The notes under the pieces are model-generated. The model was not told the DNA's origin. It did no database searches and saw only the letters and a list, made by a program, of their open reading frames with translations. Positions 3,595 to 46,426 of a DNA stretch of 64,000 bases are shown piece by piece. The translations under genes were made by a program, and so were the position numbers. This DNA comes from an uncultured Coriobacteriaceae bacterium (GTDB lineage Bacteria > Actinomycetota > Coriobacteriia > Coriobacteriales > CADBOM01), in NCBI GenBank assembly GCA_902796325.1, contig CADBOM010000150.1, positions 2,850-66,849 on the forward strand, written 5' to 3'. How positions within the stretch are numbered: the first letter of the stretch is position 1; each line of letters opens with the position of its first letter.

Positions 3595-3600
3595 GACCCG

Positions 3601-5387: not shown

Positions 5388-5492
5388 AACCGGTGATTCC
5401 TCCTCTACTCGATTGCCCTAGCATATGCGAACGCGCGCAGCTTGATAGGCCGCGCGCGCTTCTCGTAAAGAATATGCTTCGGCGGGCCCAGC

Positions 5493-6170
5493 TTATACGT
5501 CGGGGAACAAGCCTTCGATGCAATCAAGCAGAATGAACCTGTTGTGAACCGGATCGGGGTTAGGTGCCAAATCCAGAAGTATCGTCAGGCGCTTTCCGTC
5601 ACGGCGCAGCGGCATATGCTGCATGCGGTAGTTGAGCATCGTTAGTTTGTCGCTTAGCTCGTCTAGTCGATAGTTAAGGCGAATGCTCATATCTATGGTT
5701 TCGACAATGCTGCCGCATTTCAGCGTATATCTGCTTGAAGATTCTAGCAGTGTTTCATCGATGCGGCCGCTGAACGCATAGAGATCGTCAACCACGTCGT
5801 CCAGCCCCAGAAGGGTAATACGCCCCTCTGCCATGGCCTCCATGGTGTTGGTTGCCATCTCGATGTAGGAAAGTGCTCCCGACGATATGGTGTCGCGCAG
5901 CATGATCGCGTTATCGTATGCGCAGTTCATATTGCTGATGATCGAATATGGATCTTCTTTATCTAGAATGAAACGGCGCGTGAAGTCTTCCGAGCTGGTA
6001 TATACATTGGGTATCTCGAGCTTCTGGCAGAAATCGACATAGTCGTAATCAGGTCCGTCGATTATCTGGTCGTAAACCTTTTCCAAGATATCGATTTCGA
6101 TCATGACGCGCGATGTGTACCGCCCGAGCCAGAACAGACGGTCGAGTTTATTTATTGCGAGAGAATCCAT
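5493..6170 (-). CDS. Alpha-E domain protein (DUF403)
   Basis: 225 aa. The N-terminal LDRLFWLGRYTSR matches the alpha-E signature. It overlaps the upstream ATP-grasp gene by 19 nt. Confidence 0.7.
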   Translation of the reverse strand: MDSLAINKLDRLFWLGRYTSRVMIEIDILEKVYDQIIDGPDYDYVDFCQKLEIPNVYTSSEDFTRRFILDKEDPYSIISNMNCAYDNAIMLRDTISSGALSYIEMATNTMEAMAEGRITLLGLDDVVDDLYAFSGRIDETLLESSSRYTLKCGSIVETIDMSIRLNYRLDELSDKLTMLNYRMQHMPLRRDGKRLTILLDLAPNPDPVHNRFILLDCIEGLFPDV

Positions 6171-23899: not shown

Positions 23900-24673
23900 G
23901 CGCTTAGTCGCGAGCTGCTTCGCCACAAACTTGCAGCCCGCATCGAAGAGAGCGGCAACGTAAGCCATATCCGTTGATTCAACATAAACTCTTGCCAATG
24001 TTAGGATTCCAAGCGGCCTCAGAAGCAATCAGAATCCGTTCTAAGCCTTTATCTTCAATCATCCCAATAAGAGGACTGATTTTACGGTTTCGCATGTCTC
24101 ATCCAAAATCGTTGCCTCTAACCGCGCCAGATCGTCGGGCTACTGCGCCGCAATGTCAACGAAGGAGAATGGAAGACCTCCCATCACGTTGCTCTGCATT
24201 GCGTCTGCAAACGCAACCCCAACCTCGAACGCCTCGGGCACTTTATCTCTAACTGCAGCCTCGGCCCTATCTGTGAAAGACTTTGGAGAAGCCCCGCCGT
24301 CGTCCATGCGAACCTCTATCCCCAGGTAATCGACCGGGTCTTGGCCAGAAGTGAGCATAACTCCACCGAGAGCCAACGGATCTTGCGCGATCGCTTGGCA
24401 GAGTGCGGGGGTTTGACAGTGCGTCTTGGATATCTTGACGTCGAATCCATAGTTGGCAAGCATGGTGGCCGCTATGATGGCATCGCGAGACGCACCCTCC
24501 CTGCAGTCATACCCAACGTAGATGCGCGGGGACTGTGCTTGGCGCGAGAAAACCTTGCCAACGGCATCCACGGCTCTCGCCAAGTTCAGGTCGTTATAGT
24601 CCTTGTCTTTGATGGCCCTCCATCCATCCTCTCCAAAATGAATTGGATCCATCTCCATATCGTTAGAAGCCAT
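23900..24673 (-). pseudogene. Decayed phosphoglucomutase/phosphomannomutase-family gene (domain I plus C-terminal tail only)
   Basis: A 177 aa ORF has FGEDGWRA and domain-I architecture, but the catalytic TASHNP site reads TSGQDP. In the same frame, after three stops, a remnant LRPLGILTLARVYVESTD resembles the C-terminal RPSGTEPxxRVYxEA motif. Domains II-III are absent. Confidence 0.55.
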
Positions 24674-30087: not shown

Positions 30088-31683
30088 CTATTCCTCGGAC
30101 CCGAGGCCTTCGGGGTTAAGCCCAGCCTCGATACGTCTGGTACGAGCCTCGAAGTCCATCACCGCACCGCCAGAGCCACCAGGCGCGGTTGCCGCGCTCG
30201 ACGCACTTGATGCGGCTGATCCGCCTAGCGCGTCTGCGGCACGCGTAGCAGAGGCACTTGCAACAGCTGTCTTCACGCTCGCGCTCACGGTCTCGGTATT
30301 GTCTTCTGGAGAATCCGTAACCCTAACATGCTCGGAATCAGAAGCAACCCTAAGGCCCTCCTCTTCCTTCTTGGGCTCGACCTTGCGGCCGAAGATGTTG
30401 TGGAATCGGCTCTTCTTGCTTCCCGGATCCTGCGGGTGGCCAAGCCTGCGCTCCACGGTGCCGATCATCTTGGTGAGGGGCAGCGTGACGATGAGGTAGA
30501 AGATAGCCGCAACGATGTATGGGGTCATGTTTCCGGTTGTGGAAACCACGCTCCTTGCGTACATAATCATCTCCATCACGCCAACCGCGGCGAACAGCGA
30601 GGTGTCCTTGTACAGGAGGATGAACTCGCTTGTCATGGTTGGGATGACACGCCTGAACGCCTGCGGGATTATGACGAAGAACATGGTTTGAATCGAGTTC
30701 ATTCCAAGAGACCTAGCTGCCTCGAACTGCCCCTTCTGAATGGACTCGATACCAGCACGGAAGATCTCGCACAGATAGGCACCTGAGTTGAGCGACATCA
30801 CGATGACGGACAGCATGTAGTCGCCCACCACGATTCCAACGAGCGGCAAACCGAAGAACGCGATGTAGATCTGCAAGAACAGAGGCGTGCCTCGGACAAC
30901 GTTGACGTAAAGCGATCCAATGCCCCTTAGCACCTTGATCTTGCAGATGCGCATGAAGCACAGGATGAGTCCCCAGACGATTGCGATTGGGAACGATGCC
31001 ACAACCATTAGGAGGGCCTGCAACCATCCGTAGAAAACGGTGGGCAGTGCCACCACGGCAATCGTGGGATCGAGGAACATGTGCAGGAACTTGTTGCTGT
31101 TCCAAGCCTGCACCCATCCCTGCTCCGCAAGCTCGTTGGATGCTTGCTCGTTCCACAGCACCGACGTGATGTGGAACGTCGGGGCCTGGTCTAGCTGCTG
31201 CACCGTGCCATCGGCCAAAGTTGCAGTGGCCGTTGGTGCGTAATCGCCCTCTTCGTTGGGGAGCATGGTGTTGTTGGCCTCAACCCTGATGAGGAGCCCC
31301 GCCTGGGTTGGGGTGGAGAAACCGATGGAAATCGTGTTCTCATCAACCGATGCCACGGTCTCGCCAAGGTCGATGCGGTCTAGCCCAGAAAGGCCGGTGA
31401 CCTTCACCTTATCGGCTGGAACGTTGAACCCATCGGGATAGTCGATGGTGAGCGATGAAAGTTGCTCCCCATCTCCCAGCTGGGCTTCCCAGGTGATTCT
31501 GGTTTCCATACCTCCCATGACTTCGTTGGAAGCTGAAGAGTTGCTTCTTGCAGTGCATGACGTGACCTCCATTGCCTGCGAAGGCTGGGGAACCATGGCG
31601 AGTAAGAGAAAGGCTGCCATTATGCATGAAATGGCTATGAATAGAGCGCGGTTAAAGGTAGCTGCTCTGAATGTTTTCTGCAT
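30088..31683 (-). CDS. Amino-acid ABC permease (HisM/GlnP type) fused to an N-terminal extracytoplasmic domain and a C-terminal disordered tail
   Basis: 531 aa. Signal-anchor, about 170 aa beta-rich domain, permease core with EAA motif (EAARSLGMNSIQTMFFVIIPQA), then about 110 aa Ser/Ala/Glu-rich tail. Confidence 0.85.
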   Translation of the reverse strand: MQKTFRAATFNRALFIAISCIMAAFLLLAMVPQPSQAMEVTSCTARSNSSASNEVMGGMETRITWEAQLGDGEQLSSLTIDYPDGFNVPADKVKVTGLSGLDRIDLGETVASVDENTISIGFSTPTQAGLLIRVEANNTMLPNEEGDYAPTATATLADGTVQQLDQAPTFHITSVLWNEQASNELAEQGWVQAWNSNKFLHMFLDPTIAVVALPTVFYGWLQALLMVVASFPIAIVWGLILCFMRICKIKVLRGIGSLYVNVVRGTPLFLQIYIAFFGLPLVGIVVGDYMLSVIVMSLNSGAYLCEIFRAGIESIQKGQFEAARSLGMNSIQTMFFVIIPQAFRRVIPTMTSEFILLYKDTSLFAAVGVMEMIMYARSVVSTTGNMTPYIVAAIFYLIVTLPLTKMIGTVERRLGHPQDPGSKKSRFHNIFGRKVEPKKEEEGLRVASDSEHVRVTDSPEDNTETVSASVKTAVASASATRAADALGGSAASSASSAATAPGGSGGAVMDFEARTRRIEAGLNPEGLGSEE

Positions 31684-32558: not shown

Positions 32559-33074
32559 AATGCAATCCTTTCCCTGTTTCTATGCATTTTTGAAACGCGA
32601 ACGAATTTTAACATACGGATGACCTCTTTAAGTTTCAGGCGTATGAAGTTAGTCTCAATAGCCTTTTAAACGGACGTGTTGCGACCAAAATTCCAGATTC
32701 AGAGCAGCGATTTACTGCAAATTTGCAAGATTTTGAAACATTGTGGCCTGCATGCGACACTTCCGCCTTGAAGAAAGGCCATACATTTGTTAAGAAATGT
32801 ATTCAACGGCGCAAATCTTTTTGCATAATTTTTGAGTAATTTTGCATATTTCTTCCATCAATCGCCACACTGCATTTTAAACAAACCCACATCTTTGTTG
32901 CAGTTTTCGATACCATCGCGGCGCCCCCATGCTGCTAATCTGTAGTTGTCCTTTTAAATCGATCAATACGTCGTTTTCAAGGAATACGCGTATTTTGCCT
33001 GGTTTTGCAGTTAAATCACCATCTAGCCAGAGCGCCATCCAAATATCCAAGCTCAGAAAGGCACGGTTCGAGCA

Positions 33075-34847
33075 ATGCCCGATAAGCCCGAAAAGAGGAC
33101 AACCACCTCAACAGACACTCCATTGGACAGTCCATTGGGCAGCCCAGATATCGAGCTGCCCAATCAACCGAACATGGGGTTTACCAAAATTCCGCCCAAG
33201 TTCGCGCAACAGCTTCCCGGATTCCTGTCTCCGCTAAGCAGTGCGGAAATAGCAAAAAGGAGGGAATCTGGCCGAAAGCCCGGCGACACCAACATCGTCG
33301 ATTACGCCAGGCACGAGAAGCACACCTTCTGGCAAAAGCCGCTGAGCCGCGTTGACAGCCTCATACTCTCGCAATTGGCTTATCTGAAGTGGAAGAACAT
33401 CCCAGCCGTTCCATCTGAGATCGAGTATCCAGATCCTCCCCTTATGCGAAGCCTATGCACGCTCGATGACTTTAGGAAGATCTTGGACAAGGGCCTGGAT
33501 TACGAGAAGAAGTTTGGCCTTATGTCGCTTATATATGTGTCGCCGAGATGGAAGAACATGAGGATCATCAACCACACCGACGAGTTCGACGCCAGCGCAG
33601 ACAAGCAGTTCTCGGCAACCACGTTCCTGCTTCCGGACGGCACCATATATGTTTCGTTCAGGGGAACCGACTCAACGATAGTGGGCTGGAAGGAAGACTT
33701 CATGCTGGCGTTCGAGGACCCCATTCCCTCCCAAGCTCGCGCAGCAGAATACTTGGAGCAGATAGCCAGCGCCACATCTGTCCGTGCAGGTCTCGCCCAT
33801 GCGGGTCACGACCATGAGGGTCTCGCCCGCGAGAGTCTCTATGAACATGATGCAGTAGGCGCGTACTCGAGTTCGTCCGCGAGCCTGCCTGGTGTGCCCG
33901 GAGAAATCAACTCCGGCACCTTCTCGGAATCGCCTAGCCCAATCGTGGTTGGCGGGCACTCCAAGGGCGGGAACCTTGCAGTGTACGCCGCTGCCGCATG
34001 CTCGGAGCAAGCACGGTCACGCCTGCGCGCCGTATACAGCCACGACGGACCAGGGTTTTCGCAGGAAACGATGGACAGGGTCAACATCTCCAAAATCTTG
34101 CCAATCATGGACAAGACCGTGCCGGGAGGCTCAACCATAGGAATGCTCCTGGGCGACCCGTCGAGATACAAGATAGTTCGCTCGAACGAAGTTGGCTTCT
34201 ACCAGCACGATGCGTACTCCTGGATAGTGAAAGACGGGGATTTCGAGTACCTGGATACCCTGGACGAGTCCGCCAAGTTCTTCAACACCACGATGGCCAA
34301 CTGGATATCGGGATTGAGCAAGGAGCAGATGCGAACCTTCACGGACGTGCTGTTCGGCATGTTCGGCGCCAATGGGTCGCCAAACATCCAGACTCCCATG
34401 GACCTTCCGTCGGCCACGGAATACCTGAACAAGCTAGACCCTGAGATGAGGGGCATGTTCCTCGAGGTGATGGGCAGGTTTTTCAGAGCGTCGGCTCAAG
34501 AGGCCAGCACAAATGTGAGAGGAGCCGCCTCGGAAGCCAGAGAAGCTGCGAGCGAAGCGGCCGAAGATGTTGGCAGGCGTATTTCCGAGGCTCGGGAGCA
34601 GGCGGCAGACGCCATGGAAGATGCGGCCGAGAACATAGGAAACAAGCTGGAGGATGCCGTTAGCAATGTTGGGGCTGCAGTAGAAGACGCCGTGGAGAAC
34701 ATCGGAGAAAACATCGGAGATGCGGTGGAAAACGCCATGGAGAATGCCGCAGAGAACCGAAAGGCTTTGGGCGACAAGATCCACTTGCCAATTCCCCTTC
34801 CTGCGGTTCCGGAGCCAAGAACCACGGAAGACGATAGCGCAAGTTAA
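33075..34847 (+). CDS. DUF2974/Mbeg1-like alpha/beta-hydrolase (lipase-like) with repeat-rich C-terminal tail
   Basis: 590 aa. Nucleophile elbow GGHSKGGNLA, downstream YSHDGPGF and FYQHDAYSW. No signal peptide or TM segment. Confidence 0.7.
   Translation: MPDKPEKRTTTSTDTPLDSPLGSPDIELPNQPNMGFTKIPPKFAQQLPGFLSPLSSAEIAKRRESGRKPGDTNIVDYARHEKHTFWQKPLSRVDSLILSQLAYLKWKNIPAVPSEIEYPDPPLMRSLCTLDDFRKILDKGLDYEKKFGLMSLIYVSPRWKNMRIINHTDEFDASADKQFSATTFLLPDGTIYVSFRGTDSTIVGWKEDFMLAFEDPIPSQARAAEYLEQIASATSVRAGLAHAGHDHEGLARESLYEHDAVGAYSSSSASLPGVPGEINSGTFSESPSPIVVGGHSKGGNLAVYAAAACSEQARSRLRAVYSHDGPGFSQETMDRVNISKILPIMDKTVPGGSTIGMLLGDPSRYKIVRSNEVGFYQHDAYSWIVKDGDFEYLDTLDESAKFFNTTMANWISGLSKEQMRTFTDVLFGMFGANGSPNIQTPMDLPSATEYLNKLDPEMRGMFLEVMGRFFRASAQEASTNVRGAASEAREAASEAAEDVGRRISEAREQAADAMEDAAENIGNKLEDAVSNVGAAVEDAVENIGENIGDAVENAMENAAENRKALGDKIHLPIPLPAVPEPRTTEDDSAS
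34516..34762 (+). repeat. 33 nt (11-residue) periodic coding repeat in the DUF2974 tail
   Basis: EDAAENIGNKL / EDAVSNVGAAV / EDAVENIGENIG / DAVENAMENAA, preceded by the looser AEDVGRRISEAREQAADAM. Confidence 0.75.
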
Positions 34848-34874
34848 TTGGATTTTTGCCAAAAGGCCATCGGG

Positions 34875-36086
34875 ATGAGTATGAGCGTGAACATGAGTAA
34901 CAGCAACGCCAACAGAAACGAAGATATAAGACCGTCCATGAGCCCGCATGGAATCATCGGGTACGTGGCGGACGAGCAGCGCACGTTCGACGAGCTGCCC
35001 TTCAGCCGCGTGGACAGCCTGGCGTTCTCTCAGCTCTCGTACTTCAACTGGGGAGAACTGGATGGAATTCCTCTTGGTTTTGCCTTCGACAACCCGGTGA
35101 AGATCAAAGACGTGTTCAAGCTTGGAGACTACACCAGGATGTTCGGCATCGCGAGGGATTTCGACGACAACTCGGCTCTCTATGCGCTGATGTGCGTATC
35201 CAGGCGATGGGGAGACGTGAGAATTCTCAACCATTGCAGCATCTTCGACGATGACGTTGACAAGCAGTTCTCCGCCACAACGTTCCTGCTGCCAACCGGG
35301 CTCGTCTACGTCGCGTTCCGTGGAACCGACATGACCGTCACGGGTTGGAAGGAAGACTTCATGCTGGCTTTCCGCAAGCAAATTCCATCCCAAACGGAAT
35401 CGACGCTGTACCTCGACAACGTGATAAGGGGCATTCGCGACAAAATGCGCCAAAGCGAGCTGCAGCGGGGATACCCGCTAACCGGGAGGATGGTGGTTGG
35501 TGGCCACTCCAAGGGAGGGAATCTGGCCATCTACTCGGCAGCTACCTGCGCTCCCCACGGATTCGAGATGATAGACAAGATCTACGACCACGATGGGCCG
35601 GGATTCTCCAGAGAAGCCATGAAGCTAGCCAACATTGGGAAGGTGGTTGGCAAGGTTGATAAAACGGTGCCGGTTGACTCGATCGTGGGCGTGGTGCTGC
35701 CAGACCCCTGCGATTACCTGGTCACCCTCTCTAACGCCACGGGGCTAGACGAGCACAACCCCTACCATTGGAGAGTTGTAGACGGAGACTTCGAGTACGC
35801 AGACGAAGTCTCTGGAATATCGAGGCTTTTTGGAAAGACCATGGACACCTGGCTCTCAGGACTCACGAAAGAACAGATGGCAACTTTCACAGATGCGTTC
35901 TTTGGAATCCTGAGCGCCGGCAAGACCACGAACCTCGAGGACATCGATCCAAGCCACATCAGGGACAGCGCCATGTATCTCAGGAAAATGGATCCCAAGA
36001 TGAGGAAGATGTTCTTCGACGTATTTGGGAAGTTCTTCCAGACCTCCGCTAGAAACCTGCTGTGGGAGCTGTTATCGGCAAACTAG
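34875..36086 (+). CDS. DUF2974/Mbeg1-like alpha/beta-hydrolase, second paralogue
   Basis: About 403 aa. GGHSKGGNLA, YDHDGPGF and LDEHNPYHW are collinear with the upstream paralogue. The first ATG is at 34875. The ORF is open from 34848, directly after the upstream stop. Confidence 0.7.
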   Translation: MSMSVNMSNSNANRNEDIRPSMSPHGIIGYVADEQRTFDELPFSRVDSLAFSQLSYFNWGELDGIPLGFAFDNPVKIKDVFKLGDYTRMFGIARDFDDNSALYALMCVSRRWGDVRILNHCSIFDDDVDKQFSATTFLLPTGLVYVAFRGTDMTVTGWKEDFMLAFRKQIPSQTESTLYLDNVIRGIRDKMRQSELQRGYPLTGRMVVGGHSKGGNLAIYSAATCAPHGFEMIDKIYDHDGPGFSREAMKLANIGKVVGKVDKTVPVDSIVGVVLPDPCDYLVTLSNATGLDEHNPYHWRVVDGDFEYADEVSGISRLFGKTMDTWLSGLTKEQMATFTDAFFGILSAGKTTNLEDIDPSHIRDSAMYLRKMDPKMRKMFFDVFGKFFQTSARNLLWELLSAN

Positions 36087-36168
36087 AGCGCGGGTCAACG
36101 CGTGCGTGGGTCAACGCGTGAGCCGAGGAATCTTGCCCGCCACGCAAAGCAAATCACGCATAGCAGAT

Positions 36169-36201
36169 GGGGCGCACCCTCCGCGATTGGAGGATGCGCC
36201 C
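36169..36201. terminator. Hairpin between convergent DUF2974 and giant surface-protein genes
   Basis: ggggcgcaccctcc / ggaggatgcgcccc, a 14 bp stem with 1 mismatch and only weak U-tracts. Confidence 0.5.
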
Positions 36202-36275
36202 CTTGGCGTTAGGTTCCGCACTTGAATGCCGCATCAGGGTGCCATGTTTAAACGCCCTCTACCATGCGGACTTCA

Positions 36276-39200
36276 CTATGCAGATGCCTCCTCGCACCAT
36301 TCCTTGATGGAGCTGTTAAGCGCACTCTCTCCGCCAAGCACATATCCGGTGAATATCGCATCGCCGTTGGTGCCGATGACGGAATCGATTGCTGCCTTCG
36401 ACGCGTCAGTGCCGTCGAGCAGCAGCAGTGCAGAGCCGCTCTGTCCGAGCAGGTTCACCGATGCCAGAGCATCCGGGAAGTTCACGCCAGATGCCACGGC
36501 CATTCCGTCGTAGCTAAGCGGCGTTGCAGGCGCAAACGTTGCCTCGTCACCAGTTGGGGTGGTGCTGGTCTCCCAAGCAACTACCTCGGCAGAGGTGTCG
36601 TAGCGAGTCTGTCCTGCAAGGCGGGTGTACTGCACGCCGTCACCCAGCTGGGCCTTGAGAGCCTCGAAGTTAACGGAAGCATCTCCGCCGACGACCACGA
36701 TCTTATTGAAGCCGCCGTCCTTGATGGCCTGAACCTCGGCGTCGTTGATTGCTCCGCCCGTGGCACCGAAGATCGGAGCCTTGTCATAGGATGCGAATGC
36801 GCCGATGGAGAGCGCGTCGGCGAAGCCGTCGACGCTCACGACTATTGCCGTGTCGCCCCAGCTGGCCTTGCCGGTCTCGTAGACCTTGAGTCCGGTCTCG
36901 ATGCGGTTGGCTCCCGCAATGCGCGAGGTTTCCGCAACTCCGTTAGTGGTTGCAATCGAGTTCTCAACGTCGGCAGAGACTGCCACAGGTCCACCGATGA
37001 TATAGACCTTGGCGCTTCCGTTGGACACACGAGCGATTTCGGCCTCAGCCTCCGGCGAGAGCGTTACCGGATCGGTGAGGATCACGGGCGCATTGTATGC
37101 ACCGGAGAGAGCCGATGCCGAGAGAGCGTCGGGGAATGCCGCTCCGGACGCCACGATGATCGTGGATGCGGAGCCGTCCTTCCAGCTTTGGGCAACTATG
37201 GACTGCATGGTGCCGTAGCGGGTGGCGCCGGAGAGGCGTGTCCACTGAGCAGGCGCAACATCCGGTGCAACCACGATGTCCATGGTCTGGCTGGCCGTGC
37301 CGGCAGAGCTCGTAGCCGTCACCGTTACGCTGTAGGTTCCAGCGGTAGTTGGGGTGCCGGTGATCTTGCCGGTTGCAGCATCGAACGCGAGTCCTTCGGG
37401 CAGACCCTCGACGCTAACCTCCGGTGCCGGGTTGCCCGTGGTCTCGATGGTGGCCTCGTAGGCCTCGCCCACCTTGCCAGAAGGCAGCTCGGAAGTGCTG
37501 ACTGCAGGCGCAGCGTAATCCGGGTCGACGTCGCCCGAGACCGTGATGGTGCCGGCCTTCTCGTCCATGGCGATGGTGTACTCCACCCAGCTGCCGGTCC
37601 TCGCGTTGCGGAAGGCCGCCACGGCCTTGCTGCCGGTTATCTGCTTGGAGGAGCCCAGGGTGTTGGCGAACTCCAGCGTGAACGGCTGGCCCTGGGACAC
37701 CGCCACGGTGCCCTCGGTCGCCGCGGCCGCGTCGGCCGCGCTTCCCGCGTAGGCCATGTCGTAGGTGGAGTCTGCCATGGTGATCGTGGGCTGGAGCCTG
37801 TACTCGTTGGACGCGGGGGTCCCGAAGTAGTAGAGGCTGCCCTTGGCCTCCGGGTTGAAGGAGGCCACGGTGCTGGTGACCGACACGTCCTCGGCCCCGC
37901 GGTAGTTACCGGCCCTGAGGGTGCCGGCGTTGGCGTCGATCACGAGCTGGCGGCCGGTGAAGGCCCTGGTGTAGTCGGGGCTGTCGGGGTTGGCCTTCTC
38001 GGCGGCCGTGGCCCTGGAGTTGGAGACGGCCACGACGGGCACCGTCGCGGTGCCGTCGGCGCCGAGGGTCACCGGGACCCTGAAGGTGAGCTTGCTGGCC
38101 ACGCCGTCGTTTACCTCCTGCACCTGCGGGTCGTCCTGCGGGCGGTCGGTGAAGTAGTGCTGGTCCACGTCCTTCTTCACGCTCTCTACCCAGTTGTCGT
38201 GGCTGGCGCCCTGCTGGGCCGCGAGGGCCTCGTCCACGGTGCCCGGGATCACGTACTTGTAGCCGCTTCCCGAGAGCGAGAACTCGACGTAGGTCTGGCC
38301 GTCCTCCTCGATGAGGTTGGCGTTCACGACCTTGAACATGAGCTCCTCGTCTGTTGGGACGAGGGATGTGACCTTAGCTGCGTCCTTCACAACCAACTCG
38401 TATGTCTGGCTGGTGGATCCGGTGGAGCTTGTTGCCGTCACCGTTACGCTGCTGGTGCCTGCGGCCGTAGGTGTTCCGGTAATCTTGCCGGTTGCGGCAT
38501 CGATTGTCAGACCCTCGGGAAGTCCGGTGGCGCTATAGGTGATATCGCTCGGAGTTCCGGTTGCCTCCACGGTTGCCTCATAGGCATCTCCAACCCTGCC
38601 GAAAGGCAGCTCGGTTGTAGAGATCACAGGCAGCTCGTTAACCACGAGGGTGAGGTCCCTAGATGTAGACCAACCGTTAGTTGTGTTGTATTCCACGGTA
38701 ATGTTGTAGGTTCCCGCGGTGCCAGCGGCCGGGGTGCCGCTGAGCGTTCCGTACTCGGCGAGGGTTAGCCCTTCGGGCAGGCTGCCCTTGCTGATGGAGA
38801 ACGAACCCGTCTGGGCGGCGCCATCCCAGGACTCCTGCTCGATTGTGGTGCTGTAGGCCTGGCCTACCGCGGCATCCGGGAGCTCCGTGGTCGTGATGTT
38901 GGGATTGTCTACCATCTCTAGCGTGTACTGCTTGCTCACGCTGCCAACCTTGTTAGATACGGTGACTGTAAACGTGTAAGTACCCGGGTTGCACCTTATC
39001 GTGCCCTCGAAGTGTCCGGTTTCCGAGTTGATCCTCGTTCGCCTTGGCATCGTTCCGTCGGTAACCTGCCAGGTTAGATCTCCACCGGTGGCCTCGATGG
39101 CCATATCACTGACGCTCTGTCCATAATGGACCTTGCCCAAACTCTCCGTCGTGATCTGCGGAGCACTTTCGATGGTTACCGTGAAGGTCTTGCTGGCTTG

Positions 39201-42200
39201 GCCGAACGAATCGGAGCCATCTATGGCATCGTTCTGGTAGCACTCCCAATCGGTGAAGCTGTAGGTCTCGCCGCCCTTGCAGCTGGCGTCCACGGTACCC
39301 GAGACGGTCCTGGTGGCGGGGTCGTAGGTAAGACCATAGGCAGAGCCGCTGCGTGTGGTTTCGGCCTTCAGCAGGTCGGACGGGTTGCCCACGGGATTCA
39401 CCGTGAAGCTGTAGGACTGGCCGGGTATAGCAACCGGGATGTCGTCCTGCGTGGTGCTCCAGGTAATTGGGTCGCAAACGTTCATGGGCAGTGTAGCCAA
39501 GGCAATTCCTGCGGAGTTGCTAACAGCCACCTTAACGTTGTACTTGCCGGCCGTGGTCGGGGTGCCGCTGATGGTTCCGTCGGTGCTCATGGTAAGACCA
39601 GCAGGGAGCGTAGAGCCATCCACCATGTAGGTGAAGTCGTAAGGGCTTCCCGTAGCGTTAACCTTGGCGGTGTAGCCGTCTCCCACCATGACATCCGGCA
39701 GATAGGTGTTGGTAATCTGCGGGGTAACATTGACGGTCTTGCCCGTTACCTCCACCGTGGCGTATGCGGGCAGAGCCTGTACCTCTTCGCTGGTGTCCTT
39801 AGCCCACACATAGTAGGTGCCGGGCACGTTGATCGAGAGGCTTGCCACCCCGGTATCGCTAACCGGGACAGATCCACATGGCTTGTTAAGCTCCGTGCCG
39901 AAGTAGACCGTACCCGCACTTGCAGCATGATAGGTCTGAACCGATGCAGGCTTCCACATATCCTGGTTGGGCATGCCAATATAGACATCGAAGGCATTGC
40001 CTGTGGTCTGCGCCGAGAGCTCGTGGATTGGCGAGCTGAAGCTGTCATTCTGGAAGAAGTACAGGAAGTCGCCATTCCACTTGACGGGCGTGAACGCCGT
40101 CATATCCACGTAGTCGCCGTCATGCAGCGGGATGTGGTCTGCAGTTGCACCCACGTTGTAGGATGCGCCCCACTGCTTGGTGAGTTCGTTGTCCATGGGC
40201 CAGCAGCCGTTGATATAGTAGTTGAGGTTGGAGCTGAGGCCGAAGAACCCACCCATGAACATGCTTCCCGGGCTACCACCGTAAACCTTGGCATCGAATC
40301 CGCCAGAGTAGTAGTTCTCGCTCAGGTACACGAACAGCTGGATCATCGTGGTCTCGTACTCGTAATCGGCATCGGAGGCCGGGAACCCGTTGGCATCGCG
40401 GGCGGTGTAATTGAACTTGCCCATGCCGTGCTCGTCGAGGTCGACCTTGCTCACCTCTGAGAGGTCGATCGGGATGTAAGCCATCGTGGTGCCGGAGTCC
40501 TTGCCGTCAGAGATCACCCAATCGCCCTCGTTGGAAAGCGAGAAGTAGATGGTGCCGGTGGCCTCGCGGTACTTGGTCTTGATGGTTATGGGCAGAGTGG
40601 TGGTTGCCGTGACGCCGTCATCGGTGGTGGCCACGAAGGTGACCTCGGTCTTGCCCTTTGTGGTTGGGGTACCGGTGATGGCACCGTTCTCATCCATCGA
40701 GAGACCGTCGGGCAGTGCGCTGCCGTCGGCCAGGCTCCAGGTTACCTTGTCGGACGACGAGGTAGCTGCAAGCTGCCCGGAGTATGTGGTGTTAACCACG
40801 ATGGAGGGCAGCTCTGTTGTGGTGATGGTGAGGTTGTTCTTCACCAGCAAGGTAACGTCGACTGCCTGGGTGGTTACGCCATCGGAGCTTATGGCCTCAA
40901 CGGTGAAGGTGTACGTTCCAGCCTTGGCCGGTGCACCGCTGATGGTTCCGTCGCTAGCGATGGTAAGGCCATCGGGAAGCGCGGAGCCACCGAGGAAGTA
41001 GAACGACGGGTTATCGATGTCGACAGTCTCGATCTTTCCGGTGAAGTTGGCACCAACGGTAGCGGTGCCAAGGTCGGTGGTGGTGACCCTCGGGGTCTTG
41101 TTAACGGTCAGGGTGTATGCCTTGGAGCTGCTACCCCAATCGTTGGTTGCGGTAACCGTGAACGAATAGTCACCAGAAGCAGCCGGCGTACCAGACAGGG
41201 TTCCATCGGAGCTCAGGGTTACACCCTCGGGCAGGGAGCCGCTGGTTACGGCCACGGTTCCAGTGGGAATACCGCCGGCAACGATCTTCGCGCTGTAAGC
41301 AGTTGCCGCGCTAGCCGCCGGCAGAGAGGTGGTCTCGATAGACGGGGCCACACCGTTCACGGTAACGGTTGCGATTGCGGGCGAAGAGGTTATGCAGTCG
41401 AGGTTCTCGTCCATATAACCATCGGCCCATACGTAGTAGGTACCAGGCTGATCGAAGGTAACCTCGGCCGTTCCATCATCGCCGGTAATGATATCGGAAT
41501 CGAACGCCTTATCGGTGTTGTATGCGGTGCCGGTATGCAGCATGACTCCCTCAGAGTCGCCGTAGCTGGTGGTGTACTCGCTCCAATCTGGAGCGGCATG
41601 GATAACCTTCACGGTAAGGGGCTCTCCAGCAGTTGCCGTGTACTCGTGAACAACGGCGCTTGCATCGGCATCTGCCTCTGGATCTGCGAACCAATCGAAC
41701 GGCGAGTAGGTACCAAACGGAGCGCTCCAATCGGCCCAGTCTGCCATGTCGATATGGTCGCCATCGCTAACCACGATGTGATCGCTGGTTGCACCCCATG
41801 CGGGACGCTCGAGCGGGTACACGTAGTTGTGATAGTAGTTGAGGTTGTAGCCAAACCCGAAGAATCCGGACGAAATGAACGAGCTGCCGGGAGCTCCGGT
41901 GATAACGAGCTCGCTGGTTCCAGCTGCAGAGTAGTGCTGGAGAGTGTAGACGAACACCATCATCATGGTTACTTCGTAAACACCATCGCCATCCGCATCG
42001 TAGGCATATTGTCCAAGACCGTAATCGTCAAGATCGATCTTGCTAACCTCGGCGAGGTCGATCGGAACCTCTGCCATGTATCCATCACGGCCGTTCATCT
42101 CGCCATCGGCTGGCACGAACACGCCGTCCTGTGAAATCGATATGTAGACGGTTCCCTCAGCTGCCTTGTACTTGGGCACTACATTGAGCGTGAGCTCCTT

Positions 42201-45200
42201 GGAAGCCGCGGGCTCAATGCCGTTATCGGCGGTAACGGTGAAGGTATACTCGCCAATCTCATCGGTGGTTGGAGTTCCAGTGATGTAGCCGTCAGCAGTG
42301 AGCTTCATGTTATCGGGCAGAGCGCCATCGGTGATGGTCCACTTCATGGTGCTGGGGCTACCCTTAGCAGCTAGCTTTGCGTAATAGCCCTCGTTTGCCC
42401 TGGCGTTGTCGAGCGTTGTAGTGGTAATTGTTGGGGCAACCTTGTCCACAACGGTCACAGTTGCCAGCGCAGGGGACGACACCACGTTGTTGTTGGTAGC
42501 GCCCATCTGTCCATCGGCCCACACGTAGTAGGTTCCAGGAGTCGTGAACGTGTACTGAGCGGTTCCATCCGCCCCGGTGGTAACCGTTGCGGTCTGTGTG
42601 CCGTAGGCGGAACCAACGGCAAGCGTGTAGTTGTCCGCCGCTGCTGTGGTGACCGTCATCTTGTAATCCGGCGCAGGATACGAGTAAGTGGTCTTGTCCA
42701 GCGTGAATGTCACGGGCTCGCCGGTGAATCCGGTGTATGCGTGCGTGATGCTGCCGTTAGACATGAAGTAGTGGTCCGCCGCATTGGCATCGCCATAGGT
42801 GCTGCCGGTGTAGGTGAACACGTTCCAATCCTGGCCAGCTGCAAGGTCAACACGGTCTGCGGTGATCATGCTGCCGGAGCCATCGCTCGGCGCCACACCG
42901 TTAATCGCATAGGTGATGTTGGCAGAGCCATTGCCCCAGAAGCTATTGATGTACAGGCTGCCGGGAGCGGAGTATTGGTTGAGCTCTAGGCCCGAGGTAC
43001 CGCCGCTATCGTAGTGGTCGAGCACGTACAGGTACAGCTGCAGCCCGGTAACGTCATAGGAGCCGTCACCATCGGAGTCGTACTTGTAATCTCCAAGGCC
43101 ATAGTTGTCCAGGTCGTACTTGGCAACATCGGACAGGTTCACTGGCACGTAGCTCATAACCTTGCCTGCGGTCTGACCGTCGCTGGTCACGAACTGGGCG
43201 TCTTTGGAAACAGACACGTAAACGGTGCCCTTGACGTTCTCGTACTTTGCCACGCACTTGACGTTGATGCGCTTGGTAACGCTGGTGCCGTCGCTTGCAG
43301 TGGCCTTTACGTTAACGTAGCTGGTGCCCGCGTACTGGCGGGTACCGGTGATGGTGCCGTCGCTTGCAACCTTAAGCCAACCGTAACCATCTACCTTGCT
43401 CCAGGTTACGTCGTCGCGATTAGCCGTGAGCTTGTAGGTGTATGGAATGTTGGTATATGCAACGGGAGCATCGGAATCGGAGGTAATCTCGAGCTTAGGC
43501 CTAACCGTGATGGTGTAGTTCACGGTATCGGTGCTTCCCTGGCTGTTGCTTGCGAACACGCTGATGTTGGCAACGCCAGCCTCGGTAGGCGTGCCGCTGA
43601 TAACACCGGTGGTTGTGTCAAGCGTAAGCCCTGCAGGCAGGGTCTCGGTACCAGAGAACCATAGCTGAGGAGCCGGGTATCCGGTTGTCTCGATCTTCTG
43701 ATTGTATGCAGTTCCTATGGTTGCATCTGGCAGAGTTGCCGTGGTGATGGCAGGAGCTGCATTAACTGCGAGAGTGAAGCTTGCAGCAGCGCTGGTTCCG
43801 AGCGTGTTAGTGGCGGTAACGGTAACCGTGTATGCGCCTCCAGCAGTTGGAGTACCCGAAATCTTACCGGTTGTGGCATCGATCGAAAGCCCTTCCGGGA
43901 GCCCAGTTGCAGCAAACGTGGCTGCAGGCTCTGCAGTGGCTTCGATGGTTGCCTCGTAGGCCTGTCCCGCGGTTGCCTCGGGCAATGCCGTGGTGGTGAT
44001 AGTGGGAAGCTCACCGGAAACCACGATGGTAATCGTGGTCTGGTCGCTCATTCCAGCGGAGTTCTTGGCAACCACATCGAACGTATAGGTGCCAACAGCG
44101 GCAGGGATTCCGGTAACCTTGCCGTTGGAGAAGCTCAGACCCTCCGGCATGCTGCTACTACCAGACAGATACCAGGTAACCTCGGCAGGATAGGCGTCGG
44201 CGGAAAGCGCTGCATCTACCGGCACGCCAACCACTGCATCGATCTCGGTAGTCGTGATCTTCGGTGCGCGATAGTCCACAACTGCGCCATAGGTGCCATC
44301 GGCATTCTGGGACATGGTCATGTTCTCGACCAGATAGGGCTTCACTGTGGAGAGATCGACGGCCGCCGAGTAGGTGCCGCCGGAAATCTGGATGTCGCCC
44401 TGCTCGATCCCCGAGTAGGCACTGTTGATCATGACGGCCATCGGGGCGTCGAAGGTGCCGCCGGTGATCGTGAGCTTGCCCGTGTCCACGGAGTCGTCGA
44501 GCTTGCCGTTGCACACGCAGCAGGTGGCCTTGCCGTCGGTCGGGCCAGTGAAGGTTCCACCCGAGATGGTGCACACGCTCCAGTTGAGGATCGGGCCCTG
44601 TGTGGTGTTGGAGAAGCTGCCGCCCTCGATGGAGAGCACGCCGCCGTCGTCGTTCTTCACGGTGTTGAGGCCGCCGGAGAACGTGCCGGACTTTATAGTG
44701 AGGTCCGGGGCCGCGGCGTTGGTGCCGTCCACGTAGCCCAACCGCGAGTCGGTGGAGCTGTAATTGTAGTAGCCGTTCTCGATAAGCGACGAGTAGGTGT
44801 CAGTGCGATCCATCGTGGCGCCATCGATCGTCATGGAGCCGTGGTTCACCACGTTGTAGTACTTGCTCTCCTTCTCGATGGTGACCTGGCCGATTTGGGC
44901 GGTGCCGTCGTTGAACACCGCCGCCTTGTTATCGATCGTGCTCTCCACGGTACCCGCACCGGTGAGCGCGAGCTTCGCGCCCTGCGCCACGTACACGGTG
45001 TCGGCGTCGGAGGCGTTGGTCAGCGTGTGCCCCGCGAGGTCGAGCGTCACGTCAGCCCCGGCCGGGACCACGACATCCTCGGACACATCCGAGGCGAGCG
45101 TCACGGTGCCGCCCTGGCCGGCCGCCGCTATTGCGTCGGCGACGGTGGCGTATCCGGTATCGCCAACGGTGGCCACATATGTTGTTTCACCTCCCCCGGA

Positions 45201-45305
45201 GCCTTGATCCGCATATGCCCCGATGGGCGACATGCCCATCACGAACACCACGGATAAGAGGACTAGGAGGATCTTGCTTGGTAAAGATACCTTCGTAGCG
45301 TCCAT
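36276..45305 (-). CDS. Giant (about 3009 aa) cell-wall-anchored surface protein: signal peptide, beta-helix, 14 Ig-like (He_PIG/cadherin-like) repeats, three large repeated modules, one unassigned module, 3x CWB2
   Basis: Signal peptide MDATKVSLPSKILLVLLSVVFVMGMSPIGAYA after RBS GAAAGGAAGG. GGTF/GGSF/SGTFSGG rungs. Fourteen LPxGLxxDxxTGxISGTPTxAGxYxxTVTA units. Three GTxYxSxSxxG...NYxxNG...GTYYVWA modules. C-terminal triple RxxGxxRYxT...FPDALS repeats. Confidence 0.9.
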   Translation of the reverse strand: MDATKVSLPSKILLVLLSVVFVMGMSPIGAYADQGSGGGETTYVATVGDTGYATVADAIAAAGQGGTVTLASDVSEDVVVPAGADVTLDLAGHTLTNASDADTVYVAQGAKLALTGAGTVESTIDNKAAVFNDGTAQIGQVTIEKESKYYNVVNHGSMTIDGATMDRTDTYSSLIENGYYNYSSTDSRLGYVDGTNAAAPDLTIKSGTFSGGLNTVKNDDGGVLSIEGGSFSNTTQGPILNWSVCTISGGTFTGPTDGKATCCVCNGKLDDSVDTGKLTITGGTFDAPMAVMINSAYSGIEQGDIQISGGTYSAAVDLSTVKPYLVENMTMSQNADGTYGAVVDYRAPKITTTEIDAVVGVPVDAALSADAYPAEVTWYLSGSSSMPEGLSFSNGKVTGIPAAVGTYTFDVVAKNSAGMSDQTTITIVVSGELPTITTTALPEATAGQAYEATIEATAEPAATFAATGLPEGLSIDATTGKISGTPTAGGAYTVTVTATNTLGTSAAASFTLAVNAAPAITTATLPDATIGTAYNQKIETTGYPAPQLWFSGTETLPAGLTLDTTTGVISGTPTEAGVANISVFASNSQGSTDTVNYTITVRPKLEITSDSDAPVAYTNIPYTYKLTANRDDVTWSKVDGYGWLKVASDGTITGTRQYAGTSYVNVKATASDGTSVTKRINVKCVAKYENVKGTVYVSVSKDAQFVTSDGQTAGKVMSYVPVNLSDVAKYDLDNYGLGDYKYDSDGDGSYDVTGLQLYLYVLDHYDSGGTSGLELNQYSAPGSLYINSFWGNGSANITYAINGVAPSDGSGSMITADRVDLAAGQDWNVFTYTGSTYGDANAADHYFMSNGSITHAYTGFTGEPVTFTLDKTTYSYPAPDYKMTVTTAAADNYTLAVGSAYGTQTATVTTGADGTAQYTFTTPGTYYVWADGQMGATNNNVVSSPALATVTVVDKVAPTITTTTLDNARANEGYYAKLAAKGSPSTMKWTITDGALPDNMKLTADGYITGTPTTDEIGEYTFTVTADNGIEPAASKELTLNVVPKYKAAEGTVYISISQDGVFVPADGEMNGRDGYMAEVPIDLAEVSKIDLDDYGLGQYAYDADGDGVYEVTMMMVFVYTLQHYSAAGTSELVITGAPGSSFISSGFFGFGYNLNYYHNYVYPLERPAWGATSDHIVVSDGDHIDMADWADWSAPFGTYSPFDWFADPEADADASAVVHEYTATAGEPLTVKVIHAAPDWSEYTTSYGDSEGVMLHTGTAYNTDKAFDSDIITGDDGTAEVTFDQPGTYYVWADGYMDENLDCITSSPAIATVTVNGVAPSIETTSLPAASAATAYSAKIVAGGIPTGTVAVTSGSLPEGVTLSSDGTLSGTPAASGDYSFTVTATNDWGSSSKAYTLTVNKTPRVTTTDLGTATVGANFTGKIETVDIDNPSFYFLGGSALPDGLTIASDGTISGAPAKAGTYTFTVEAISSDGVTTQAVDVTLLVKNNLTITTTELPSIVVNTTYSGQLAATSSSDKVTWSLADGSALPDGLSMDENGAITGTPTTKGKTEVTFVATTDDGVTATTTLPITIKTKYREATGTIYFSLSNEGDWVISDGKDSGTTMAYIPIDLSEVSKVDLDEHGMGKFNYTARDANGFPASDADYEYETTMIQLFVYLSENYYSGGFDAKVYGGSPGSMFMGGFFGLSSNLNYYINGCWPMDNELTKQWGASYNVGATADHIPLHDGDYVDMTAFTPVKWNGDFLYFFQNDSFSSPIHELSAQTTGNAFDVYIGMPNQDMWKPASVQTYHAASAGTVYFGTELNKPCGSVPVSDTGVASLSINVPGTYYVWAKDTSEEVQALPAYATVEVTGKTVNVTPQITNTYLPDVMVGDGYTAKVNATGSPYDFTYMVDGSTLPAGLTMSTDGTISGTPTTAGKYNVKVAVSNSAGIALATLPMNVCDPITWSTTQDDIPVAIPGQSYSFTVNPVGNPSDLLKAETTRSGSAYGLTYDPATRTVSGTVDASCKGGETYSFTDWECYQNDAIDGSDSFGQASKTFTVTIESAPQITTESLGKVHYGQSVSDMAIEATGGDLTWQVTDGTMPRRTRINSETGHFEGTIRCNPGTYTFTVTVSNKVGSVSKQYTLEMVDNPNITTTELPDAAVGQAYSTTIEQESWDGAAQTGSFSISKGSLPEGLTLAEYGTLSGTPAAGTAGTYNITVEYNTTNGWSTSRDLTLVVNELPVISTTELPFGRVGDAYEATVEATGTPSDITYSATGLPEGLTIDAATGKITGTPTAAGTSSVTVTATSSTGSTSQTYELVVKDAAKVTSLVPTDEELMFKVVNANLIEEDGQTYVEFSLSGSGYKYVIPGTVDEALAAQQGASHDNWVESVKKDVDQHYFTDRPQDDPQVQEVNDGVASKLTFRVPVTLGADGTATVPVVAVSNSRATAAEKANPDSPDYTRAFTGRQLVIDANAGTLRAGNYRGAEDVSVTSTVASFNPEAKGSLYYFGTPASNEYRLQPTITMADSTYDMAYAGSAADAAAATEGTVAVSQGQPFTLEFANTLGSSKQITGSKAVAAFRNARTGSWVEYTIAMDEKAGTITVSGDVDPDYAAPAVSTSELPSGKVGEAYEATIETTGNPAPEVSVEGLPEGLAFDAATGKITGTPTTAGTYSVTVTATSSAGTASQTMDIVVAPDVAPAQWTRLSGATRYGTMQSIVAQSWKDGSASTIIVASGAAFPDALSASALSGAYNAPVILTDPVTLSPEAEAEIARVSNGSAKVYIIGGPVAVSADVENSIATTNGVAETSRIAGANRIETGLKVYETGKASWGDTAIVVSVDGFADALSIGAFASYDKAPIFGATGGAINDAEVQAIKDGGFNKIVVVGGDASVNFEALKAQLGDGVQYTRLAGQTRYDTSAEVVAWETSTTPTGDEATFAPATPLSYDGMAVASGVNFPDALASVNLLGQSGSALLLLDGTDASKAAIDSVIGTNGDAIFTGYVLGGESALNSSIKEWCEEASA
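36279..37244 (-). repeat. Three cell-wall-binding type 2 (CWB2) repeats, the C-terminal anchor of the giant protein
   Basis: RLSGATRYGTM...AFPDALSASAL, RIAGANRIETG...GFADALSIGAF, RLAGQTRYDTS...NFPDALASVNL. Confidence 0.8.
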
Positions 45306-45340
45306 GGCCTTCCTTTCTTCCCGAATCCCAATACTTGCCA

Positions 45341-45390
45341 ATACAAAAAGAGGGCCGCAGCAACTATCAATTGCCACGGCCCGTTTTTGC
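45341..45390. terminator. Terminator-like hairpin in the leader of the giant surface-protein gene
   Basis: gggccg-ca-gcaa / ttgc-ca-cggccc (45352-45382), with T-runs on both strands (GTTTTT on +, TCTTTTTGTATT on -). It lies 40-80 nt upstream of the ATG at 45305. Confidence 0.55.
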
Positions 45391-46426
45391 CATGTTTATC
45401 GTGCATGTTCGAAGTTCAAATGTCCGGTAGCCTTGAGCCAAATCCCCCAACACGGAGGCTCCAGATATTATCGAATTCAAGAGGTTGCCTAAATCCGGGC
45501 ATGTTCTTGAATTCCCATGCACATCATTGCAGCAGGTCTTCTGACTCGCGCATCGGGTTTTCGCCTTTCCGAAAACCCAGCTACACCCTTGCCTTCCCAG
45601 AAACTTGGACCAGACTGGCTAAGCTAGTCCAGTTAATCCAAAGTTCCAGTGACTCCCTATTCGAGATGGATGCAGCCATTACGCCTACAGCGACGGATAC
45701 CGTTTGGGCATTTGACCCAATTCCCTAACCAAGCCCTAAGCCAGCTTGGCTCCTCTTTGCAAGACCGGTACAAGCAACCCAGATCGTCTTCGAACATCGC
45801 TGTCTTCGATAATCGGCAGCTCACCTTGTCATGCGAGGCACTCTGCAACGTTTATTTATTCAATTGTGAGTATTTACATACTTAGGATTAGTATAGACGT
45901 GACAGCTAGCCAATTCGACCATTTAAAGTTATCGGAATTTAAAATCTTTCAATGGAAAAGTTAACTGGAGCAATATTTTGTATCCCAACGACGAGGCTAT
46001 CAACGATAGGCTATAGCTCATCACAGCCGCAGCAGCTCCCTGTTATGCGGGATTGTGGAGAGCCAGTACTTAGAATGCCAGCGCAGTAAGTTGTTGGTCC
46101 TCGCAAGAGCAGCGAACCGTAGTCGCACTTTAGTGGCTGCAGGCAATGGAACCTCAGGCAATATGCACGCAAATTGGGCGCACCCTCCCAAGACGAAGGA
46201 CGCGCCCCATCAGAACATGAAAATGCCCCAAGCCCAATTTTCAACTGGGTTTGAGGCATCTATACATTGGTGCATATTAGCAGTGGCAGCCGTCCGCGCA
46301 TCTGGTCACATGCAGTGCCTAGCGCTTACCTCGGCGGAGTTTCTCGCGCGAAGGTAGCAAGCGCATTCGACTTGATTATGCGCATCCGGCTCGTGCAGGT
46401 GCTTGCAACCTGGCCAAGAGCTTGCG

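Follow-up and report, generated by a model that had tools for sequence, protein, structure and literature searches.

A tandem pair of Mbeg1-like, lipase-fold hydrolase genes in an uncultured Coriobacteriaceae bacterium

The 64-kb stretch of Coriobacteriaceae DNA analysed here (the window) contains two adjacent open reading frames (ORFs), ORF1 and ORF2, which lie on the plus strand at positions 33075–36086 and encode putative serine hydrolases of the Mbeg1-like family (PF11187, DUF2974). An earlier note, made from the sequence alone, had placed a tandem pair of such genes at these coordinates, and both ORFs were present there. The layout of the pair is as follows.

33075–34847, plus strand: ORF1, 590 aa, ATG start, predicted Mbeg1-like hydrolase carrying three additions
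34848–34874, plus strand: inter-ORF gap, from the ORF1 stop codon (TAA, 34845–34847) to the probable ORF2 start; contains the ribosome-binding site AAAGG
34875–36086, plus strand: ORF2, 403 aa, probable start at 34875, predicted Mbeg1-like hydrolase of standard architecture

The note had also described the two genes as having no spacer, the second frame opening right after the first stop. This is correct for the mechanical frame, which opens at TTG 34848, the first possible start codon past the ORF1 stop. The more plausible start is ATG 34875, with AAAGG ∼8 nt on its 5′ side; one public assembly uses this codon (403 aa) and the other ATG 34881 (401 aa), and the likely ATG codons thus leave 27–33 nt between the genes, depending on which is chosen. 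The start codon of ORF1 is uncertain as well, its product being 570 aa in the public record. The tandem pair is real and is reproduced in an independent contig of 1962 nt from another sample (L086, 97.9% identical), which spans the 3′ end of ORF1, its TAA, the junction, ORF2, and the end of a giant surface-protein gene that converges on the pair. ORF1 and ORF2 share a reading frame with only the single TAA at 34845–34847 between them, and the same stop is found in L086. Read-through of this codon would yield a two-domain protein of ∼1000 aa, although a shared frame is expected by coincidence in one case out of three.

Both ORFs are new members of a large, known and uncharacterized family. The PF11187 profile matches ORF1 at 244 bits (E 1.6e-72, in two stretches split by an insertion) and ORF2 at 209 bits (E 7.2e-62, profile positions 1–223 of 224), compared with a gathering cut-off of 21.1 bits. 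The profile hidden Markov model (HMM) search that had been proposed as a check thereby bears out the family assignment. The Lipase class 3 profile (PF01764) is reached marginally by ORF2 (22.1 bits, cut-off 22) and scores 16.8 bits for ORF1, and no NCBIfam family model matched either ORF. Mbeg1 of Gemella sanguinis M325, the founding member of PF11187, is known only for the induction of NF-kB by an E. coli clone expressing it (PMC6867899). The window ORFs belong to the same family, score ∼10-fold above threshold and keep the GHSKGG elbow, a likeness drawn at the level of the Pfam family; they differ in being two tandem copies at one locus.

A word-indexed search returned more than 5600 relatives of ORF2, and an exhaustive profile search returned 7217 clusters at 50% identity with E ≤1e-3, 3525 of them with E ≤1e-30. 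Nearly all are 350–400 aa long and span the full 390-position profile, which both window ORFs also cover (N-terminal helical domain, hydrolase core, and C-terminal helical bundle). The source names are mostly Lachnospiraceae, Oscillospiraceae, other Clostridia, Collinsella, Atopobiaceae, and Coriobacteriales, with a few Bacilli, ‘Mollicutes/Tenericutes’, and one spirochaete. With ∼7200 clusters, common in human-gut Clostridia and Coriobacteriia, the Mbeg1-like/DUF2974 family is one for which any functional foothold is valuable.

The two proteins are collinear, as previously claimed, with 38% identity over 437 aa and 44% over core columns. The family alignment of 91 sequences has 24 invariant columns, and ORF1 and ORF2 each keep 24 of 24. 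In ORF2 numbering these are D47, R111, Q131, F132, G150-T151 of the FRGT motif, E160, Q173, G210-H-S212-K-G-G-N216, Y220, D240-x-P-G-F, P266, G272, H294, and W299; the Arg of FRGT is conserved in at least 90% of the 91 sequences. The motifs quoted in the earlier note were all found, i.e. the nucleophile elbow GGHSKGGNLA in both ORFs, the acidic motifs YSHDGPGF (ORF1) and YDHDGPGF (ORF2), and the histidine motifs QHDAYSW and EHNPYHW, and the putative triad residues within them are invariant across the alignment.

33960–33962, 34044–34046 and 34206–34208, plus strand: putative triad of ORF1, Ser296, Asp324 and His378 (family alignment)
35508–35510, 35592–35594 and 35754–35756, plus strand: putative triad of ORF2, Ser212, Asp240 and His294 (family alignment and structural model)

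An AlphaFold2 model of ORF2, built on the 91-sequence alignment, has a mean predicted local distance difference test score (pLDDT) of 91.6 and a predicted template-modelling score of 0.90. According to DSSP assignments, Ser212 lies between strand 206–211 and helix 213–224, which makes it a nucleophile elbow, Asp240 immediately follows strand 233–239, His294 follows the last core strand (281–284), and FRGT follows strand 144–148. The putative triad residues of ORF2 thus occupy the canonical secondary-structure positions of alpha/beta-hydrolases. The core of the ORF1 model has pLDDT values above 90. Foldseek searches of the PDB with the models gave significant matches only to proteins of the class-3-lipase fold (probability 1.0, E 1e-5 to 1e-4): the M37 lipase, Malassezia mono/diacylglycerol lipases, Aspergillus feruloyl esterase A, EDS1/PAD4, and an Enterobacter type VI secretion system (T6SS) lipase effector. 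PDB searches by sequence returned only insignificant matches to the nucleophile elbow, and no solved structure of the family was detectable in this way; in a profile alignment, FRGT and GHSxGG align with a PDB chain named ‘Lipase’ (6a0w).

The nearest solved folds are thus Photobacterium M37 lipase (2ory), the Malassezia mono/diacylglycerol lipase SMG1 (3uue), and Aspergillus feruloyl esterase A (1uza). The window proteins have in common with class-3 lipases the FRGT oxyanion motif and the GHSxGG elbow, but identity is only 10–15% and TM-scores are 0.2–0.5. They also carry extra N- and C-terminal helical domains and are predicted to be intracellular rather than secreted. Taken together, the models support a class-3-lipase-like alpha/beta-hydrolase fold for both ORFs, and the conserved motifs, together with the secondary-structure positions of the triad residues in the ORF2 model, support the view that both are putatively catalytically competent Ser/Asp/His hydrolases. 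The maximal 19-residue Kyte-Doolittle means are 0.99 (ORF1) and 1.22 (ORF2), and the N-terminus of each protein is polar. No signal-like or transmembrane hydrophobic stretch was seen in either ORF by hydropathy, which is not a dedicated signal-peptide predictor, and the corresponding statement of the earlier note agrees with these values.

Each protein has a class-3-lipase-like core, preceded by a helical domain that is specific to the family and followed by a C-terminal bundle of helices. In the mechanism that we propose, the Ser of GHSKGG (Ser296 in ORF1, Ser212 in ORF2), presented on the nucleophile elbow, would attack an acyl ester. The invariant His past the last core strand (378 in ORF1, 294 in ORF2) would act as general base, and the invariant Asp of HDGPGF directly past the next strand (324 in ORF1, 240 in ORF2) would orient it. 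FRGT would form the oxyanion hole, as in class-3 lipases. The substrate would be an acyl ester of a membrane lipid or another cellular lipid. Both proteins are most likely intracellular Ser-His-Asp acyl-ester hydrolases with a lipid substrate; we infer the substrate class from motifs, fold and family context, and the location from hydropathy.

DUF2974 has been described as a lipase relative with permuted strands (PMC11878206). Proteins with DUF2974 domains include X-Tfe effectors of type IV secretion systems (T4SS), a Rhs/T6SS protein of Bacteroides fragilis, and a surface protein of the YSIRK-Rib type (PMC6536674, PMC11854122, PMC7136413). A newer Pfam model that matches relatives of the pair, PF26363, is named ‘Phospholipase-like’. 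Mollicutes and Tenericutes typically lack a cell wall, and the occurrence of family members in genomes carrying these labels therefore argues against a cell-wall substrate. It is because of the X-Tfe/Rhs/T6SS effectors, the name of PF26363, and the Mollicutes/Tenericutes members that a lipid is suggested. Two other leads from the literature were dropped. In a Gordonibacter preprint on ellagic-acid lactonase, a DUF2974 protein was a docking candidate only and the enzyme found was an amidohydrolase, and in a feruloyl-esterase paper a DUF2974 protein was just a weak BLAST hit.

ORF1 is the longest of 228 family sequences (226 relatives and the two window ORFs), and its additional length is found in three places.

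33075–33275, plus strand: N-terminal extension of ORF1, ∼67 aa ahead of the start of the family profile, Pro/Ser/Thr-rich, predicted to be disordered
33780–33938, plus strand: insertion in ORF1, aa 236–288, low-complexity, between the pre-nucleophile helix and the nucleophile strand, predicted to be disordered
34440–34766, plus strand: C-terminal long helix of ORF1, aa 456–564, ∼109 residues, amphipathic, net charge −16

The first 62 residues are 38% Pro/Ser/Thr, and residues 1–51 are modelled as disordered (pLDDT <50). An extension of about this length had been called unique to ORF1. The extension is real, but long disordered N-terminal extensions (at least 40 aa) are also present in 6 of 226 relatives, including the closest one, P0004. 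The claimed insertion ahead of the nucleophile was recovered as 49 extra residues relative to the profile, with pLDDT <50 over 245–282; none of the three other relatives with at least 25 extra internal residues has an insertion ahead of the nucleophile strand. The C-terminal addition amounts to 84 extra residues relative to the family profile and is modelled as a continuous helix over 456–564. It contains the repeat tail that had been noted, in the form of about seven 11-residue repeats (aa 485–561, nt 34527–34757). The period shows in the autocorrelation, with maxima at lags of 11 and 22, and in a sharp maximum of the hydrophobic moment at 98.2 degrees, as in an 11/3 helix. The tail gives sub-threshold matches to apolipoprotein-type Pfam models, and shorter Ala-rich helical tails are seen in a few other family members. 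Outside these additions the core stays near consensus, with departures at 7 of 81 conserved columns. A role in a known defence system was considered and rejected: PADLOC gave only coiled-coil-type matches of the ORF1 tail to ZorA/Leo models, i.e. coiled-coil noise, and none for ORF2.

The long helix raises the question whether the pair encodes exported antibacterial lipase toxins, with ORF1 as a ‘reverse’ type VII secretion (T7SS) substrate like TslA and TslM of Staphylococcus aureus and the helix as C-terminal targeting domain. We regard this as very improbable. ORF1, though not ORF2, does resemble TslA and TslM superficially in that its lipase-fold domain is N-terminal and precedes a long helical region at the C-terminus (PMC10730906, PMC13560087). 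The catalytic domain is also the same as or similar to that of the DUF2974 effectors (Xanthomonas-type X-Tfes and the B. fragilis Rhs/T6SS protein AKA51715.1; PMC6536674, PMC11854122), and the Enterobacter cloacae T6SS lipase effector 9cys, which has a similar catalytic domain, is among the fold matches. The window ORFs, however, lack a delivery domain (Rhs core, PAAR, XVIPCD), an immunity gene, and a secretion-system context. Pfam found only PF11187 and low-complexity helix matches in the ORF1 tail; Rhs, PAAR, and LXG domains were not among its matches. The 64-kb window is made up of housekeeping genes such as RecA, MiaB, hydrogenase, and ABC transporter genes and lacks genes for secretion systems, toxin immunity, or mobile elements, and single-copy relatives lie among housekeeping genes of various kinds, with no immunity genes. 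ORF2 and nearly all other family members lack the long helix. TslA-type identity itself was rejected: no WXG100/Lap partner gene is present in the window, the pair is flanked by the ABC transporter and the giant surface protein and not by genes for small helical proteins or DUF576/DUF1433 immunity proteins, no sequence similarity was detectable in the PDB sequence search, and triad spacing differs (S164/D224/H251 in TslA, S212/D240/H294 in ORF2).

An HMM built from the family alignment was used to scan all ORFs of 84 loci, up to 10 kb on each side. In these and in two further loci (L085 and L087), exactly one Mbeg1-like gene was found, i.e. at 86 of 86 loci from other species. Among the loci compared, the doubling is seen only in the source species, in the window and in the same-species contig L086. 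The earlier note had named a lack of conserved pairing in related genomes as a result that would refute its proposal, and no conserved pairing was found; the two genes do not form a conserved two-component system. Three relatives share the neighbourhood of the window. In L001, a Coriobacteriales metagenome-assembled genome, ManC and, further on, an ABC transporter are followed by one Mbeg1-like gene (P0004) and then Acyl_transf_3. In L085, ManC is followed by one such gene (P0003) and then BacA and Hexapep, and in L087, Fer4_11 is followed by one such gene (P0006) and then a C-terminal fragment of an acyltransferase-like gene. Related Coriobacteriia thus have a single copy in this neighbourhood, with ManC on one side and Acyl_transf_3 or BacA on the other, where the source species has two. 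ORF1 would be the orthologue-like copy that gained the disordered N-terminal extension, the disordered insertion, and the long acidic helix of 11-residue repeats, and ORF2 the architecturally standard but sequence-divergent copy.

Neighbour-joining trees group ORF1 with P0004 (bootstrap 80%) and within a clade with P0004, P0006, and P0033 (86%). ORF2 groups with P0003 at a weak 64%, and ORF1 and ORF2 are sisters in 3.5% of replicates. An old duplication followed by differential loss, a recent duplication followed by acceleration, and acquisition of a related copy are alike compatible with these data, and they are not separable because ORF2 is 42–44% identical to everything, roughly equidistant from all relatives.

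The earlier note had further implied a link between the pair and the giant CWB2 surface-protein gene, but no giant CWB2 gene lies beside the single Mbeg1-like copy in any of L001, L085, and L087, where Acyl_transf_3 (in L087 the acyltransferase-like fragment) or BacA lies downstream in its place. A CWB2 or adhesin cluster is also not among the recurrent neighbours of family loci, which were derived by BLAST clustering of neighbouring genes. Co-occurrence with CWB2 or adhesin genes is therefore not upheld, and adjacency of the giant gene to the pair is incidental. These neighbourhoods bear on another explanation, in which the enzymes are esterases that act on the envelope together with neighbouring genes and remodel a glycopolymer there, either lipid-linked or acylated, and which would account for their position next to CWB2 and among ManC, Acyl_transf_3, BacA, and glycosyltransferase genes. 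In the window, L001, L085, and L087 the gene indeed lies among ManC, Acyl_transf_3, BacA, Hexapep, and GT2 genes, and a YfhO gene is found ∼700 nt downstream in eight Lachnospiraceae loci. However, the former neighbourhood is common only to close relatives; elsewhere the neighbours are NA37, peptidase C26, citrate synthase, lactate dehydrogenase, and phosphotransferase-system genes. The lack of a CWB2 gene beside single copies in that same neighbourhood, the absence of an export signal by hydropathy, and the family members in genomes labelled Mollicutes and Tenericutes also argue against it, and we consider this explanation unlikely.

The only neighbour association of the family that crosses lineages involves NA37 (PF04245, 37-kDa nucleoid-associated protein). 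Its gene adjoins the single Mbeg1-like gene on the same strand in 29 loci (e.g. L047:11207–12223 and L008:8843–9892), downstream and usually at ∼100 nt in 22 Collinsella loci, and upstream (from overlapping to 68 nt) in seven Lachnospiraceae-type loci. NA37 is absent from the window, and the NA37-linked relatives have no PADLOC match.

As a whole, the data are best explained by a probably co-transcribed pair of apparently cytoplasmic, Mbeg1-like, lipase-fold hydrolases, whose pairing is not conserved and whose proximity to the CWB2 gene is incidental, and we hold this with good though not full confidence. Several points weigh against it. Co-transcription of ORF1 and ORF2 is probable only as judged from the short gap of 27 nt. 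A cytoplasmic location is likewise probable as judged from hydropathy, and non-classical secretion would be compatible with the same profiles. The class-3 analogy is imperfect, because the Ser–Asp spacing is 28 aa, as against ∼60 aa in class-3 lipases; the putative acid comes directly after the strand next to the nucleophile helix, which may resemble the arrangement in pancreatic lipase more than the fungal one. Gene neighbourhoods vary across the family and give no clear functional signal. The searchable literature holds no substrate-level study and no defined substrate for any Mbeg1-like member, in agreement with the earlier note. Finally, ORF2 has the only Glu (Glu293) at an otherwise 100% Gln position preceding the putative catalytic His, and Arg232 is replaced by Met; judged from the alignment, these changes could alter its activity.

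The same two substitutions also fit a rival reading, in which one of the copies (ORF2 being the likelier) would no longer catalyse hydrolysis and, as a degenerating or regulatory pseudo-enzyme, would modulate the other copy or form heteromers with it. At 14 of the 81 conserved columns ORF2 differs from the consensus (family median 4, 90th percentile 9.2), and its uniform distance from all relatives is as expected of an accelerated copy. Against this, none of the 24 invariant residues is lost from ORF2, the Ser/Asp/His triad and the invariant part of FRGT among them, and its model is very confident. It is also intact in the second sample, where the ratio of non-synonymous to synonymous substitution rates is ∼0.28, based on four synonymous and four non-synonymous differences, counts too small for significance. 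We consider a pseudo-enzyme improbable, and two putatively active hydrolases remain the preferred reading. More speculatively, and in our view improbably, an intracellular lipid esterase of mainly Gram-positive anaerobes, elsewhere a single-copy housekeeping enzyme, might here have been subfunctionalised into a module of two enzymes, with ORF1 tethered or oligomerised via its helix and ORF2 retuned (Q293E) for another lipid or pH. If this were true, side-by-side characterization would reveal the substrate of a family of ∼7000 clusters. The outcome removes the suggestions of a new system, a conserved partnership, and a surface-protein link for the pair. What is left at the locus is a modest foothold: two naturally diverged copies, of which one is heavily modified, could be compared biochemically.

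Upstream, ORF1 is separated from a divergently oriented amino-acid ABC (ATP-binding cassette) transporter operon, which encodes a binding protein, a permease, and an ATPase according to Pfam.

32559–33074, no strand: divergent intergenic region, 516 bp, AT-rich, between the amino-acid ABC-transporter operon (minus strand) and ORF1

The description of this region as a 516-bp AT-rich spacer with reiterated TTTGCA was accurate: G+C content is 40.9%, compared with ∼55% for the window, and TTTGCA/TGCAAA occurs five times as against 0.31 expected from mononucleotide shuffles, an enrichment that is modest evidence given that the hexamer was picked post hoc. The spacer also contains a perfect 12-bp palindrome, TGCAAATTTGCA, at 32716–32727, and a direct repeat of TTTTGCATA(A/T)T at 32819–32850, in two copies with a distance of 21 nt; a single TTTTGCATAT copy is present in the corresponding spacer of L001. 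Scans of the spacer for consensus sigma-70 promoters, T-run terminators, and Rfam elements were all negative. It is probably an ordinary promoter/operator region, and the palindrome and direct repeats may be the site of a regulator.

Downstream, ORF2 converges with the giant gene, as had been described, and a hairpin lies between the two.

36169–36202, no strand: strong GC-rich hairpin GGGGCGCA...TGCGCCCC, in the spacer where ORF2 and the giant gene converge; z-score of the region −2.9
36276–45377, minus strand: giant surface-protein gene, 3033 aa, with 12 He_PIG stretches, PKD, and three CWB2 stretches (Pfam)
42357–43259, 41283–42185 and 39684–40586, minus strand: three modules of the giant protein, ∼300 aa each, 34–45% identical
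45514–45764, minus strand: full-length cobalamin riboswitch, directly 5′ of the giant gene (Rfam 49.2 bits, gathering score 31.5)

The hairpin is a probable bidirectional terminator, although the scan for T-run terminators did not call it. A 16-nt tandem repeat, GCGCGGGTCAACGCGT, is present in 2.1 copies at 36088–36120; it begins one base past the ORF2 stop, on the 5′ side of the hairpin.

The ∼300-aa module of the giant protein had no Pfam match and no PDB sequence match, and a possible identity of the modules with B12-binding domains of the DUF4430 type found no support in Pfam. A profile search found the module in only ∼20 other proteins, mostly of ∼378 aa and with a dockerin. In these other lineages, too, a cobalamin riboswitch lies upstream in all four module loci in which the upstream region is covered, at 32.8 bits in L088 and L089, 31.2 bits in L091 (just below the gathering score of 31.5), and 43.9 bits in L094, where the operon behind it also contains genes for a FecR+DUF4430 protein and an ABC ATPase; L092 showed no cobalamin riboswitch at the gathering threshold. 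Because the link between module and B12 riboswitch spans at least three distinct gene contexts, it suggests that the module is a previously undescribed, corrinoid-related extracellular domain. The riboswitch-controlled giant surface protein is a more promising lead in this stretch than the pair.

The rest of the window is core chromosome, with genes for RecA/RecX, MiaB, PgsA-CinA, threonine synthase, FeFe-hydrogenase, and molybdopterin oxidoreductases, and an envelope-polysaccharide cluster with BacA, Hexapep, DUF4012, and GT2 genes. An ORF of 177 aa at 24140–24673 (minus strand) matches only domain I of phosphoglucomutase/phosphomannomutase and may be a truncated gene or a pseudogene. The ABC-transporter permease encoded at 30088–31683 (minus strand) is unusually long, 531 aa, with an N-terminal region of ∼200 aa weakly resembling DUF2808 and a low-complexity C-terminal tail. 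Two tandem AstE/AspA-like paralogues are located beside transglutaminase-like, Alpha-E, and circularly permuted ATP-grasp genes at 2557–7462 (minus strand), and a homologue of Lit (PF07314, lipoprotein intramolecular transacylase) is encoded at 43–894 (minus strand).

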